From: Actinomycetota bacterium
Lineage (GTDB): Bacteria; Actinomycetota; Thermoleophilia; Gaiellales; F1-60-MAGs149
Reading direction: 5' to 3'
NCBI GenBank assembly: GCA_026392355.1
Contig: JAPLCF010000041.1
Span: 76,716 to 140,715, forward strand
DNA: 64,000 nt
The notes under the pieces are model-generated. The model was not told the origin of the DNA, searched no databases, and saw nothing but the letters and a program-made list of their open reading frames with translations. Made by a program: the position numbers and the translations under genes. This document shows, piece after piece, positions 13,412 to 56,069 of this stretch. The first letter of the stretch is position 1. Every line of letters begins with the position of its first letter.

Positions 13412-18358
<4,947 letters not shown>

Positions 18359-18360
18359 GT

Positions 18361-18585
18361 TGACGATGGGAACACCCCGAGGTGGCTCGGTCCGAAAGGA
18401 CCGATTCACCTCGCGGTGATCCCGTCGCCTTGGTTGATCAACCTCGCCAGCAGTGGCGTTGCGAAGCCACGACGTTGGAACTAGGCGACGCGATGACCTC
18501 GAGGTGAATCGGTCCATTCGGACCGAGCCACCTCGAGGCCTTCGCGTCGTCCGACGCGATCAATCAAGAGGCCTCCGCGTCGTCA
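18361..18585. repeat. Double-hairpin intergenic repeat element, copy B (family 1, inverted relative to copy A)
   Basis: Begins 3 nt after the rpoC stop. Hairpins lie at about 18373-18418 (GAAA loop) and 18497-18538. It is the reverse complement of 7576-7768, and its terminal ~35 nt also match 57015-57072. Confidence 0.85.
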
Positions 18586-19101
18586 GACGTACGCCAGCAA
18601 TTCCGCCACCGGCACGCGATCCGCTGCCGTCGCCGGCCGGTGGATGAACGCTACGTGCCCCTCGGCGTCGAGGACCACGTCGGCGCCGAGCTGGAAGCCG
18701 TCGTCACTACGGTGCTTCATCGCGAAGTGTCCGTGCAGTAGTTCGCCGGCCGCCTCGCGCCACGAGCGCGGGTCGAGCAGGAGGTTGCGCGGCGTGCCGC
18801 GGCCGACGCCGAGCGCGCGGTAGAGCGCGCAGTCTTCATCGCCGATCACGGTCACGTCCCAGGCGGCGTTCGACTGGCGCCAGCCCTCTGCGCGTCCGGC
18901 GGACGTCGGCAGCACGACGAGCAGGTCAGCCCCGGCGGCGCGAATTGCGGTCTTGGCCTCCACGGCACGGCGGAGGTGGCGTTGACACACCGGTCAACCG
19001 GGGTGGCGCGAGAGGTAGACAATCCACGGCCGCCCGCTCAGATCTGCGCGAGTGACGGTCCCGCCGCCGGCGCGGGGGAGGGCGAGGTCGGGGTAGTCCA
19101 T
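18583..19101 (-). CDS. Redoxin/AhpC-TSA-like thioredoxin-fold protein with an in-frame TGA at the CxxC position (candidate selenoprotein, otherwise a pseudogene)
   Basis: ATG 19101 gives MDYPDLALPRAGGGTVTRADLSGRPWIVYLSRHPG-[TGA at 18994-18996]-PVCQRHLRRAVEAK... in one frame through to the stop at 18583. The track lists only the part downstream of the TGA. Confidence 0.6.
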
Positions 19102-19223
19102 GTCCTGACTATCGCAGAGTCGCCGCAGGTGGCACGGATGCCTCGCAGCTGTTGCGTGGGGAGGGGTTTGCCAACCACAGGCGGGAGCGTCACAATCTTC
19201 GCTTCGTCCGGGAGGAGGATCCC

Positions 19224-20162
19224 ATGGAGACCCTGTTCACTCGTCGCGGCTTGGCCGTGCTGATCGTGCTTGCGCTTGCCGTCGGTGCGGCGCTGCCATC
19301 GCTTGGGACGGCCGCGAGCGCATTCATCGGCACGGCACAGTTGAAGAACGGTGCCGTCACCAATGCCAAGGTGCGGGCCGGCTCGCTGCGCTACACGGCG
19401 TTCGCCAAGGGACAGGTCGCGCGCGCGGACCTCAAGGGCATTCGCGCGGGTGGTGTGCTGACCGGGGCGTATCCGAGCCCTGGCCTCGCAAATGGCAGTG
19501 TTAAGGCAGGGCAGATCGCCACCGGTGCCGTCGGCAAGAGCGAGATCGCCGCCGGTGCCGTTGGCTCAGACGAATTGGCGGCAGGGGCCGTGCGGGCCAG
19601 CGATATCAGTGATGGCTCGATTGGCGCAAGCAAGCTCGCCGCAAACAGCATCGGCGCGGCCCAGATTCAGCCAGGAGGGGTGGGGTCGAGTGAGATTCGC
19701 TCCGGCGCGGTGGGCGTCAACGAGCTGGCCGCGACCCCCGGTGCGCGTGCGTACCGTTCGGCGCCAATCACGCTGGCGAGTGGCGTGATCACGGCGATTC
19801 CGTTGACCGATGTGGACTTCAATCGCAACGACGTGTGGGCGACAAATCGTCCGACCAGCTTCGTCGCCCCGGTTGCGGGCATCTACATCGCGACGGCGAG
19901 CGTGGTGTTCCAGAGCAATGGCTCGGGGACGCGAAGTCTCTGGATCGCTCCGGCCGACGCGCCGACGCAGCCGTTCAACGGCGAGCAGCAGGGCGCGGTT
20001 ACCGAAGGTGGGCAGTCAGGAGAGTTGACGGTCACGGCGATTCTTCGGCTAGAGGCAAACGAGGCCGTGTCGATGGTTGCACGGCAGAATTCGGGCGCCG
20101 ATCTGCAGGTGCTCGGAATGGGCCAGCGAACCTCGTTCTCGCTGCAATTTGTGAGTCCCTGA
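19224..20162 (+). CDS. Secreted protein with 10-residue tandem repeats and a C1q/BclA-like C-terminal jelly-roll domain
   Basis: ATG 19224 follows GGGAGGAGGA. Signal peptide METLFTRRGLAVLIVLALAVGAALPSLGTAASA. At least seven repeats of the type GAVGxxEIAA. The C-terminus has the FVAPVAGIYIATASVVF...TSFSLQFV pattern typical of C1q-like domains. Confidence 0.7.
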   Translation: METLFTRRGLAVLIVLALAVGAALPSLGTAASAFIGTAQLKNGAVTNAKVRAGSLRYTAFAKGQVARADLKGIRAGGVLTGAYPSPGLANGSVKAGQIATGAVGKSEIAAGAVGSDELAAGAVRASDISDGSIGASKLAANSIGAAQIQPGGVGSSEIRSGAVGVNELAATPGARAYRSAPITLASGVITAIPLTDVDFNRNDVWATNRPTSFVAPVAGIYIATASVVFQSNGSGTRSLWIAPADAPTQPFNGEQQGAVTEGGQSGELTVTAILRLEANEAVSMVARQNSGADLQVLGMGQRTSFSLQFVSP

Positions 20163-21231: not shown

Positions 21232-23320
<2,089 letters not shown>

Positions 23321-53559: not shown

Positions 53560-53645
53560 GGTACCGGGAAGAGGGCTCGCTCGCGCCGGACGCCCGGCAC
53601 ATGCGTCGGGCTGGGAGCGCGGTTTCTGGCATACTCACCACCGCT

Positions 53646-53719
53646 CGGGGTATGGCGCAGCCTGGTAGCGCGCTCCGTTCGGGACGGAGAGGTCCGCAGT
53701 TCGAATCTGCGTACCCCGA
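53646..53719 (+). tRNA. tRNA-Pro (anticodon CGG)
   Basis: Cloverleaf read by hand. Acceptor cggggta/taccccg, D stem gcgc/gcgc, anticodon stem ctccg/cggag with loop ttCGGga, T arm cgcag-ttcgaat-ctgcg, discriminator A. No encoded CCA. Confidence 0.9.
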
Positions 53720-53771
53720 TGAGCGGGTAGGGGACGGCAATCCCGAGCCGTCCGGCACCTACCCTGTGGGC

Positions 53772-54593
53772 ATGCCCTACGGCTGGCCCTACGCAATCCT
53801 TGTCCTGCTGCAGGCGTTGGTGATCCCACTCGTCCGCGATCCCGGCCTGCTGCCGCGCATTCCGCGGCACCCGCTGCTGGGTCTTTTGCCGTTGATCACG
53901 ATCGGCGGCGGCGTGATCGCGCTGGGTGCGATTCCGGGTGCTGTCGGAGCGGTCACCGATCTCGCGGCGCTTGCCGTCCCGCCGCTGGCACTGCTGGCGG
54001 TGCTGCATGTACGGCGTTGGGCCTTGCCACTGGCGATCGTCTCGCCCGTCCTGTGGCTGCTGGCGTGGCGATTGCCGACAAGCGGGTGGACGCAGCTGGC
54101 CGGCGACCTCCTGATCGTGCTGGCCGGTGTCTCGCTGGGACGGCTGACCGGTTGGGTCGCGCCGCGCGCCGCACTCGTCGTCGGTGTGCTGGTCGCCACG
54201 GTCGTGGACATCTGGCAGGTGCTAACGGTGCAGGTCGGACCGGTCGCGCAGGCACTCGCCGCCGCCGAGCCGCCGAGGGGCCTGCCGGGGCTGCAGCAGC
54301 TCGAGCTGCTCGGTGCCTCAGTGGGCTGGGGGGATGTCTATCTCGCGGCGCTGGTGGGTGCGATCGTCGCCGCCAGCGTGCGTGCGACGATTGCCGCGAC
54401 GGTGGCGACGGCCATCGCGGGTCTATTGATGGGGCTCCTCTTCGGCACGTTGGATCTGCTGCCGGCCACGGTACCGTCGGCCGTCGGTCTGGTCGTTGCC
54501 GGCGTGGTCGAGCGCGAGCGCGTTGCTGGTTGGCTGCAAATGACGACCAGCCGCCTGAAAGCCCGTAGGATGCCCGCAGACAAGGAGGCCTGA
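53772..54593 (+). CDS. Polytopic membrane protein with a GxGD motif (possible presenilin/SPP-like or prepilin-peptidase-like intramembrane aspartyl protease)
   Basis: 273 aa from ATG 53772, highly hydrophobic. The motifs VVDIWQV, SVGWGDVYLAALVG and LLPATVP occur in that order. Confidence 0.6.
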   Translation: MPYGWPYAILVLLQALVIPLVRDPGLLPRIPRHPLLGLLPLITIGGGVIALGAIPGAVGAVTDLAALAVPPLALLAVLHVRRWALPLAIVSPVLWLLAWRLPTSGWTQLAGDLLIVLAGVSLGRLTGWVAPRAALVVGVLVATVVDIWQVLTVQVGPVAQALAAAEPPRGLPGLQQLELLGASVGWGDVYLAALVGAIVAASVRATIAATVATAIAGLLMGLLFGTLDLLPATVPSAVGLVVAGVVERERVAGWLQMTTSRLKARRMPADKEA

Positions 54594-54599
54594 CCAGCC

Positions 54600-56069
54600 A
54601 TGGCGACCACGATCAACCTCGACGAACACCTTCTCATCGGAGGCTCCTGGATCGACGCGACGGGCGGTGCCCGCTTCGACGTGACCGACCCCGCGACCGG
54701 CAACAAAGTCGGCTCCATGCCGAACGGCACGGAGGCCGACGTCAAGGCCGCGATCGATGCCGCTGCCGCGGCGCTGCCCGGTTGGCGTTCGACGCCCGCC
54801 ATTCAGCGCGCGCGCATCCTGCGCAAGGCTGCCGACCTGATGCGCGAGCGCGCCGAGGAGATCGCCACGGCGATGACGTCGGAGCAGGGCAAGGCCCTCG
54901 CCGAGGCCAAGGGCGAGGTCGAGTACGCCGCCAGCTTCTTCGAGTGGTTCGCCGGCGAGGCCGAGCGCGTGTACGGCGAGGTCGTCCCGCCGATGAACAC
55001 CAACAACCGCGTGCTCGTGCTGCGCCAGCCGGTCGGCGTCGTCGCTGCGATCACGCCGTGGAACTTCCCGGCCGCGATGATGACCCGCAAGCTCGGCCCC
55101 GCGATGGCCGCCGGGTGCACCAGCGTCGTCAAGCCCGCCAGCGCCACGCCGCTGACCGCCGCGCTCGTGCTGCGCTGCATCGAGGACGCCGGCGCCCCCG
55201 CCGGTGTGGTCAACCTCGTCACGTCGCGCGATGCCGGCATGGTCGCGAACACGATCTTCACCGACGGTCGCGTCAAGAAGATCTCGTTCACCGGCTCCAC
55301 GGAGATCGGCAAGGATCTGATCCGCGCCTCGGCCGAGCAGGTCAAGCGCCTCAGCCTCGAGCTTGGCGGCCACGCGCCGTACATCATCTTCGATGACGCC
55401 GATCTCGACGAGGCCGTCGAGGGTCTGATTGCCTCCAAGTACCGCAACGCCGGCCAGACCTGCGTCTGCGCCAACCGCGCGTTCGTGCAGCGTGGCGTCT
55501 ACGACGCGTTCCTCGCCAAGCTGACCGCCAAGGTCGACGCGATGAAGGTCGGTCATGGCCTCGCCGAGGGCACGGTCATCGGACCGCTGATCGACAGTCG
55601 TGCCGTTGACAAGGCCGACGAGCACGTGCAGGACGCCGTCGCCAAGGGCGCAAAGCTCGTGACGGGTGGCGTACGCCTGACCGACGGCGAGTTCGCCAAC
55701 GGCTCCTTCTACGCACCGACGATCCTTGATGGCGTCACGAAGGAGATGGACATCTTCTACGAGGAGACGTTCGGTCCGGTTGCGGGCCTCACGGTCTTTG
55801 ACACCGAGGACGAGGTCATCGAGCTCGCCAACGACTCGATCTACGGGCTCGCCTCGTACTTCCACACCAAGGATTACGCGCGCCTGATGCGCGTCGCCGA
55901 GCGCCTCGAGTACGGCATCGTCGGCGCCAACGCGGGCATCATCTCGGCTGCCAACGTGCCGTTTGGTGGCGTTAAGCAGTCGGGCTATGGGCGTGAGGGT
56001 GGCTCGGTCGGCATCGACGAGTACCTCGACGTCAAGTACGTCCTGATGGGCGGCGTAGGCACCGTCTGA
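54600..56069 (+). CDS. gabD: NAD(P)+-dependent aldehyde dehydrogenase (succinate-semialdehyde dehydrogenase-like)
   Basis: 489 aa with FTGSTEIG, ELGG and catalytic Cys in GQTCVCANR. The gene symbol is tentative. Confidence 0.85.
   Translation: MATTINLDEHLLIGGSWIDATGGARFDVTDPATGNKVGSMPNGTEADVKAAIDAAAAALPGWRSTPAIQRARILRKAADLMRERAEEIATAMTSEQGKALAEAKGEVEYAASFFEWFAGEAERVYGEVVPPMNTNNRVLVLRQPVGVVAAITPWNFPAAMMTRKLGPAMAAGCTSVVKPASATPLTAALVLRCIEDAGAPAGVVNLVTSRDAGMVANTIFTDGRVKKISFTGSTEIGKDLIRASAEQVKRLSLELGGHAPYIIFDDADLDEAVEGLIASKYRNAGQTCVCANRAFVQRGVYDAFLAKLTAKVDAMKVGHGLAEGTVIGPLIDSRAVDKADEHVQDAVAKGAKLVTGGVRLTDGEFANGSFYAPTILDGVTKEMDIFYEETFGPVAGLTVFDTEDEVIELANDSIYGLASYFHTKDYARLMRVAERLEYGIVGANAGIISAANVPFGGVKQSGYGREGGSVGIDEYLDVKYVLMGGVGTV

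Follow-up and report, generated by a model that had tools for sequence, protein, structure and literature searches.

A predicted UxxC selenoprotein gene of the Prx-like-2/SelL-related type, with an in-frame TGA at its redox motif, in freshwater Gaiellales

Background

Thioredoxin (Trx)-fold proteins carrying selenocysteine (Sec, U) at the first position of a UxxC motif are an established, recurrent class of bacterial selenoproteins (PMC2398784, PMC13188914). Peroxiredoxin (Prx)-like and Trx-like UxxC proteins rank among the most abundant predicted bacterial selenoprotein families, with Prx-like 1, 2 and 3 listed for the Global Ocean Sampling (GOS) data (PMC2398784, Table 2), and a "Prx-like thiol:disulfide oxidoreductase, UxxC/UxxU" is named in a 2026 review (PMC13188914). 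The present analysis concerns a gene on the minus strand (18583-19101) of a 64,000-nucleotide stretch of an Actinomycetota genome (Thermoleophilia, Gaiellales; assembly GCA_026392355.1, contig JAPLCF010000041.1, positions 76,716 to 140,715; hereafter the window). A previous reading of this DNA (the original prediction) had proposed an in-frame TGA to specify Sec in a redoxin CxxC motif, rightly invoking the above protein class as precedent. The locus is very probably a genuine UxxC selenoprotein gene, in which Sec replaces the first Cys of an RHxG-C-xx-C motif. What the analysis shows directly is the TGA codon and how it is conserved, where the protein belongs among known families, how it folds, how selection has acted on the gene and that the RNA itself is constrained.

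The closest described counterparts are the Prx-like UxxC selenoproteins reported by Kryukov & Gladyshev and by Zhang & Gladyshev, including GOS Prx-like 1-3 (PMC2398784, PMC1794560, PMC13188914). Shared features, as judged by description, are the Trx/AhpC-TSA fold, Sec as first residue of UxxC, abundant CxxC homologues and a bacterial selenocysteine insertion sequence (bSECIS) within the coding region directly past the UGA; these proteins and the present one were likewise identified by comparative genomics alone. The clade described here differs in being best represented by PF13911 together with NF040769, rather than by PF00578 alone, and in its occurrence in freshwater Gaiellales/Thermoleophilia, where the gene is located between rpoC and rpsL.

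SelL is reportedly the Sec-bearing UxxU branch of the same scaffold. Characterized as "a Prx-like protein" (PMC2398784), it has the Prx-like-2 (AhpC-TSA_2) scaffold and the active-site position in common with the present protein, but contains two Sec residues (UxxU) and a diselenide, whereas the latter has UxxC and its clade scores 87-95 bits against the 120 bits of the NF040769 cutoff. The closest solved homologue (aligned over profile positions 16-176) belongs to the PRXL2A/PRXL2B proteins (FAM213; PAMM, prostamide/prostaglandin F synthase; 9us9), which have the same (R)xxG-C-xx-C-R motif and represent Trx-like CxxC reductases on a Prx-like scaffold. These proteins are eukaryotic, Cys-only and act on a defined lipid endoperoxide; their likeness to the bacterial protein is one of fold and motif. 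At the RNA level, the fdhF-type SECIS of E. coli is comparable in being a stem-loop that lies in the coding region immediately past the UGA and presents G-U in a small apical loop at a fixed distance (PMC13188914). By comparison, the hairpin of the present gene is unrelated in sequence, lacks a bulged U and has a short stem of 7 bp, uninterrupted and with a single G.U pair; its binding by SelB is predicted.

Reading frame and gene calls

An ATG at 19101-19099 (minus strand) opens 35 codons (18997-19101) reading MDYPDLALPRAGGGTVTRADLSGRPWIVYLSRHPG, which are followed by an in-frame TGA (18996-18994), the predicted Sec codon (U36) that opens the UxxC motif. The same frame continues as PVCQRHLRRAVEAK...AELLAYV, with PVCQRHLRR directly after the TGA, up to the gene's own terminator, a TGA at 18585-18583, and contains the partner residue Cys39 as a TGT codon (18985-18987). 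On the basis of translation, orthologues and Pfam scores, the complete gene (18583-19101) comprises 172 sense codons, with Sec at codon 36 and a single internal TGA, plus the terminal TGA. Re-reading of the sequence reproduced the originally proposed coordinates, sequences, 172-codon frame, TGA position and downstream hairpin.

Gene callers do not recover this frame. The open reading frame (ORF) lister called nothing for this gene but a 135-aa ORF (18583-18990), which starts with a GTG two codons past the TGA (codon 38) and is not the actual gene. Public annotations of the orthologue group consist of a 35-aa call and a 126-135-aa call, named "hypothetical protein" or "AhpC/TSA antioxidant enzyme"; in L001-4 and L015-19, codons 1-35 are annotated as a 35-aa gene of their own (loci from related assemblies bear L numbers, proteins P numbers), and such fragments are stored as stand-alone "proteins" (P0066, P0091, P0165 and P0179).

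Genome-wide reassignment of TGA can be ruled out, since TGA is the commonest stop among the likely-real ORFs of the window (31 of 67) and also terminates this same gene. As TGA is an ordinary stop here, its recoding needs a local signal.

Conservation of the TGA codon and selection

Homologue searches retrieved five full-length 172-aa proteins with Cys36 as well as ~25 shorter calls of 126-135 aa, and the underlying DNA was examined for part of the shorter calls, for 12 GTDB species representatives and for at least three metagenome loci. Codon 36 is TGA, and never TAA or TAG, in all 21 distinct Sec-form gene sequences read and in the partial locus L041 (~13 lineages), all of them stemming from independent ENA, JGI, NCBI and Logan assemblies. 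The TGA is even kept in a deep Sec clade (L006, L008, L026, L028, L029 and L030), the proteins of which share only ~57-60 % identity, and pairwise synonymous divergence (dS) among Sec lineages reaches ~1.2. Retention of the TGA across diverged lineages in independent assemblies excludes sequencing error, which the original prediction had named as a refuting case, and pseudogenization.

The 25 distinct orthologous sequences are identical in length (172 codons) and display no indel, frameshift or extra stop. Among 12 Sec lineages, the pooled ratio of nonsynonymous to synonymous differences (pN/pS; Nei-Gojobori) amounts to 0.41 upstream of the TGA (codons 1-35) and to 0.44 downstream of it (codons 37-172). 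This similarity of the upstream and downstream parts, together with the lack of indels, indicates that codons 1-35 are translated in this frame under the same constraint. Moreover, the Cys orthologues at the same syntenic position are single 172-aa proteins. Two hallmarks of selenoprotein genes, a UGA aligned with Cys in homologues (see below) and its retention in at least two orthologues with coding conservation on both sides, are both found at this locus.

A composition-based scan of the window for other genes with in-frame TGA was non-discriminating, antisense frames scoring as high as real ones. The sole pair of adjacent same-frame ORFs in the window (53601-54593 and 54600-56069) was considered as a second case and dismissed, since it looks like two ordinary genes; the downstream ORF has a full-length Pfam match to aldehyde dehydrogenase.

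The downstream hairpin as predicted SECIS element

Past the TGA, a 17-nt spacer (18993-18977), invariant in length in all orthologues and varying in sequence at synonymous sites, leads to a hairpin (18976-18957; CCTCCGC-CGTGCC-GTGGAGG) formed by the 5' arm CCUCCGC (18976-18970), the loop CGUGCC (18969-18964) and the 3' arm GUGGAGG (18963-18957). Its 7-bp stem includes one G.U pair, its 6-nt loop has GU at positions 2-3, the distance from UGA to loop is 24 nt and the folding energy is -11.8 kcal/mol. The published bSECIS model specifies a loop of 3-9 nt, a stem of 4-16 bp, a G at one of the two leading loop positions with G or U after it, a distance of 16-37 nt between UGA and loop, and a minimum free energy (MFE) of at most -7.5 kcal/mol (PMC13188914, Fig. 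2 legend). Compared value by value, the hairpin agrees with every one of these constraints, which substantiates the proposed SECIS-range placement.

Comparison of the Sec forms reveals constraint on precisely this segment. The lowest third-position entropy of any 9-codon window of the gene starts at codon 42 (0.18 vs. a mean of 0.77) and coincides with the hairpin, and the longest stretch of unchanging nucleotides (gene nt 124-136) takes in the 5' arm together with the CGUG of the loop. Codons 43-45 (CTC CGC CGT; Leu-Arg-Arg, all six-fold degenerate) are unchanged in the 12 Sec lineages compared, whereas Cys forms encode the same amino acids by CTT CGT CGT in one case and CTC CGC CGC in another, pointing to a constraint on RNA rather than on protein. 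Loop positions 5-6 vary freely (CC, CU, UU, UC). In L030/L037, the 3' arm reads GCGGGGG, by which two residues are altered (VE to AG) and all seven pairs are kept (G.U to G-C and U-A to U.G). Overall, the two variable pairs change solely to other standard pairs, pairing is retained in 112 of 112 cells across 16 distinct sequences (44-71 % in slid controls), and RNAalifold finds the same helix.

Protein family, fold and active site

When U is read as Cys, the complete 172-aa product scores above the Pfam gathering thresholds for AhpC-TSA_2 (PF13911; 46.2 bits, cutoff 27) and AhpC-TSA (PF00578; 44.8 bits, cutoff 26), the latter score dropping to 17 bits without the 35 N-terminal codons. This drop, together with the conservation of the upstream codons, supports the original view that the TGA does not mark a gene boundary. 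The sole NCBIfam match of the window protein is NF040769 ("SelL-related redox protein"), whose curated cutoff of 120 bits is reached neither by the window protein (87.4 bits) nor by the Cys orthologue P0001 (94.6 bits). All 60 family members match NF040769, more distant ones with E values down to 1e-50. Because the scores are below the cutoff, yet NF040769 is the best and only match, the orthologue clade is a divergent branch of this family rather than a curated member.

An exhaustive HMMER search with P0001 against 1.84 billion representative proteins revealed a family of small size, with 413 representatives at E <= 1e-3 and 17 at E <= 1e-10. Full-length outgroup proteins (29-43 % identity) all read RHxGCxxC(Q/R), and full-length Cys-form orthologues read HLGCSVCQRH. 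In an alignment of 60 family sequences, C36, i.e., the position of the TGA, is the sole invariant column, while C39 (invariant among the orthologues) and R32 are conserved to at least 90 %. Hence, the claim that the TGA stands in place of a Cys codon is corroborated by the homologues. The best solved relative of the family profile, matched over its full length, is the above-mentioned PRXL2B (prostamide/prostaglandin F synthase, 9us9; E = 5e-18; motif RRFGCVVCR).

The AlphaFold2 model of P0001 (predicted local distance difference test 93.1, predicted template modelling score 0.88) has a strand at residues 26-30 and, after the loop SRHxG, the active-site helix 37-48, which residue 36 caps at its N-terminal end and on which C39 lies one turn further. 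The model thereby shows a Trx-type fold, with its redox residue at the start of a helix that comes after a strand, and its neighbours in Foldseek are PrxQ/BCP, AhpC and ResA (TM 0.6-0.74). According to the model, codons 1-35 supply strand 8-10, helix 18-21 and strand 26-30, so that a start at the downstream GTG would indeed, as originally argued, delete N-terminal elements of the fold.

PxxxT/SxxC is the peroxidatic motif of the Prx family. A classical peroxiredoxin (1-Cys/2-Cys Prx, BCP/PrxQ) is rejected because this motif is absent: the sequence is S-R-H-P-G-U-P-V-C, with no Thr/Ser at -3. SelL itself is likewise rejected, since there is no UxxU and the second position is TGT or TGC (Cys39) in all orthologues. 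The protein is a Trx-type CxxC oxidoreductase on a Prx-like-2/SelL-related scaffold. Two statements of the original prediction need adjustment on this account. The AhpC/TSA-redoxin layout stands at the level of the superfamily, as judged from the Pfam scores, whereas the family is Prx-like-2/SelL-related (PF13911, NF040769) and not classical AhpC. The recoded residue, previously termed "resolving or peroxidatic", is instead the N-terminal nucleophile of a Trx-type CxxC motif.

Reversion to Cys and independent recurrence

In a neighbour-joining tree (outgroup-rooted, 200 bootstraps), the orthologue group is monophyletic (196/200) and includes a deep clade B consisting entirely of Sec forms (197/200). 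The Cys forms constitute a single clade (199/200), which joins the core Sec group and leaves L038, L042 and clade B outside (198/200). Parsimony favours a single Cys-to-Sec gain at the base of the orthologue group and a later, single Sec-to-Cys reversion; the alternative would need four independent gains of an identical hairpin.

The Cys-form loci (L023 10001-10516, L011 5001-5519 and L035 1063-1578) have TGC at codon 36, and P34L and P37S exchanges go along with the reversion. In L011 and L035 the hairpin is lost and weak alternative structures remain (-3 and -6 kcal/mol), while L023 retains the 5' arm and the greater part of the 3' arm, with shifted register and loss of the loop GU. The Cys clade thus carries a decaying, "fossil" SECIS, i.e., it represents a Sec-to-Cys reversion in a thiol-oxidoreductase family. 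Among thiol oxidoreductases, the general trend is from Cys to Sec, and Sec-to-Cys reversions are rare outside FdhA and SelD (PMC1794560).

A homologue from Acidobacteriota UBA4820 (~31 % identical; L043 1360-1908 (+), also L044 and L045) reads FLRHFG-TGA-MFCREH, with the TGA at the same position of the CxxC motif, and its annotation is split into ORFs of 46 and 135 aa. Its TGA is followed by a hairpin of unrelated sequence with a 17-nt spacer, an 8-bp stem (CGCGGUGC/GCACCGCG) and the loop AGUU (-15.1 kcal/mol). Repeated recoding of the same residue, each time with a SECIS-like hairpin, fits the selenoprotein prediction. P0146 ("MPCREH...") may be a further TGA case.

Selenocysteine machinery in Thermoleophilia

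A cultured member of the class, Miltoncostaea oceani, possesses a selD-selA-selB operon followed by a gene for tRNA-Sec (L046 10893-15139 (+), NZ_CP064357.1), which was found via a search of plasmids with E. coli SelA. The operon is located on an 816-kb secondary replicon, the tRNA-Sec (15047-15139) has the anticodon TCA, and genes for a rhodanese-like protein and an NAD(P)/FAD oxidoreductase adjoin the operon. In a supplementary table of Peng et al. 2016, Solirubrobacter soli, Solirubrobacter sp. URHD0082, Patulibacter americanus and Conexibacter woesei Iso977N are positive in three columns, taken here as SelD, SelA and SelB. The Sec trait is present in Thermoleophilia at the class level.

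Proposed decoding and catalysis

Translation would start at the ATG at 19101, probably on a leaderless mRNA. When the ribosome reaches UGA36, the hairpin 17 nt further on may recruit SelB-GTP-Sec-tRNA(Sec), so that Sec would be inserted instead of termination and translation would proceed to the TGA at 18585-18583. We infer both this SelB-dependent decoding and the incorporation of selenium from the hairpin geometry and the conserved TGA. As for the chemistry, the selenolate of U36 at the helix N-cap would most likely attack an oxidized substrate (disulfide, sulfenate or peroxide), and a U36-C39 selenenylsulfide could then form and be re-reduced by a cellular reductant. Likeness to PRXL2 and the Prx-like proteins suggests that the substrate belongs to the class of peroxides, disulfides or sulfenates.

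Weighing of alternative explanations

Several observations weigh against a Sec-decoding gene. Searches with E. coli SelA, SelB and SelD (tblastn, 319 kb, i.e., the window and ~255 kb of related loci) did not find selA, selB or selD and gave cross-matches to EF-Tu only, and ARAGORN detected no tRNA-Sec in the window and 11 longer loci; a negative result from a 64-kb window and ~255 kb is uninformative for a genome of several Mb. For the SelB relatives obtained by homologue search, no link to the TGA-bearing metagenome-assembled genomes was found. As regards the hairpin, the 16 sequences show no double-sided covariation, and since five of the seven pairs never vary, covariation statistics are null. 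Some other role of the RNA might in principle account for its conservation. Single-sequence MFE z-scores (+1.1 to -0.9) are non-significant in this sequence of 67 % GC, and the case for the hairpin therefore rests on comparative evidence, not on thermodynamics. Rfam revealed no SECIS-like family, neither at gathering threshold in the whole window nor at permissive threshold in 18850-19120. Finally, the window is not error-free, since fusA carries a probable 23-nt deletion.

That the TGA is a nonsense mutation or a misread TGC/TGT would require just one C/T-to-A change, and the window does carry a probable error in fusA; this explanation is nevertheless effectively refuted by the comparative data, as the TGA recurs in ~13 lineages assembled independently by different studies and centres (dS up to ~1.2), and neither side of it shows secondary decay (pN/pS ~0.4 on both). 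Alternatively, translation could stop at the TGA and a shorter redoxin could start from a GTG at codon 38 or 47, the 35-codon ORF being a micropeptide or a regulatory upstream ORF. Such a split locus would match every public annotation (126-135-aa plus 35-aa calls), and a GTG at codon 38, codon 47 or both is indeed present in each lineage. However, no internal start is common to all lineages: among 15 distinct Sec-form sequences, GTG at codon 38 occurs in five, and GTG at codon 47 is missing in L030/L037, has no Shine-Dalgarno (SD) sequence and is situated inside a hairpin arm. A product from codon 47 would lack both redox residues, in conflict with the invariance of C39 and of the RHPG context, while one from codon 38 would lack the only invariant residue of the family along with the N-terminal 37 residues including strand 26-30. 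Considering also that both parts are under the same constraint, always in frame and free of indels, and that the syntenic Cys orthologues are single 172-aa proteins, a split or truncated locus is quite improbable.

Hardly more probable is a SelB-independent read-through, in which the UGA would be read by a near-cognate tRNA (Cys or Trp) or through a hairpin-stimulated mechanism to yield a CxxC or WxxC product. This would accommodate the negative search for Sec machinery in the window and related loci as well as a hairpin conserved without compensatory covariation. Yet the hairpin geometry and GU loop fit the SelB-binding consensus, and in Acidobacteriota the same recoding goes along with a hairpin alike in geometry but unrelated in sequence. 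If Cys were the residue inserted, TGC would be the simpler solution, and it is the one to which a subclade has switched, with subsequent loss of the hairpin; Trp in place of the invariant catalytic Cys would inactivate the protein, which is nonetheless under purifying selection. The presence of the Sec trait in the class Thermoleophilia likewise speaks for Sec. A more far-reaching version, to which equally little weight is given, holds that freshwater Gaiellales recode UGA36 without SelA/SelB/SelC, with the hairpin directing insertion of Cys or another residue; in a milder variant, the Sec trait of this lineage would be sustained chiefly or solely by the present selenoprotein. If the latter were true, it would run contrary to the published view of FdhA or SelD as maintainers (PMC1794560). 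Taken together, a genuine UxxC selenoprotein gene is by a wide measure the most plausible explanation of the locus.

Genomic context and start signal

The gene occupies a fixed place in these genomes (window GC content 66.8 %), being convergent with rpoC and divergent from a gene for a conserved 312-aa protein that precedes rpsL-rpsG-fusA-tuf. This rpoC-rpsL location is not universal, as the Sec form of L041 (38-851 (+), JGI 3300043325) has a GFA-family gene 10 nt past its stop instead of the convergent rpoC.

Directly 5' of codon 1, a TGCGAT(A/G)(G/A)T motif with a spacing of 6 nt is kept in 15 of 16 lineages (L001-L030 loci), with the variants TGCGATGAT in clade B and TGTCAGGAT in L029. In the window it reads TGCGATAGT (19108-19116, minus strand), ends 6 nt before the start codon and is a candidate extended -10 element of a leaderless transcript, an interpretation drawn from sequence. 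Its fixed spacing to codon 1 provides an independent anchor for the start at 19101. Across the 16 lineages there is no conserved SD sequence and the remaining intergenic region diverges; a consensus promoter scan found nothing on the minus strand.

The 312-aa protein (19224-20162 (+)) is without a Pfam match; its N-terminus resembles a signal peptide, and GAVG..SEI-type motifs recur in it. It is kept beside the redoxin in Sec and Cys lineages (312-318 aa) and is co-directional with rpsL-rpsG-fusA-tuf. RpoC (13412-18358 (+)) has 1648 aa, the same length as in L001 and L006, and exceeds the usual size of actinobacterial beta' subunits by several hundred residues; on visual inspection, this appears to stem from a large insertion, charged or coiled-coil-like, around residues 150-480. 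The fusA gene (EF-G; 21232-23320 (+)) is spread over two frames (21232-21516 and 21398-23320), with a break near 21469/21470. Comparison with the orthologues in L001 and L005 reveals a clean 23-nt deletion, by which CGACGGCGCTGTGGAGCGGTCAT (residues TTALWSGH) is lost and an essential gene is frameshifted, probably reflecting an assembly or consensus error.

Implications

The locus represents an as yet unannotated member of an already known type of selenoprotein, and neither a new mechanism nor a new type of family. It leaves the understanding of how selenoproteins work unchanged and would not surprise a specialist. All public gene calls for the orthologue group are wrong, and their correction adds a selenoprotein to the annotation and, by implication, a Sec-decoding trait to an abundant uncultured freshwater lineage (Gaiellales/Thermoleophilia). 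The clade constitutes a natural experiment, with one gain of Sec, one reversion with a decaying SECIS and one independent gain in Acidobacteriota.

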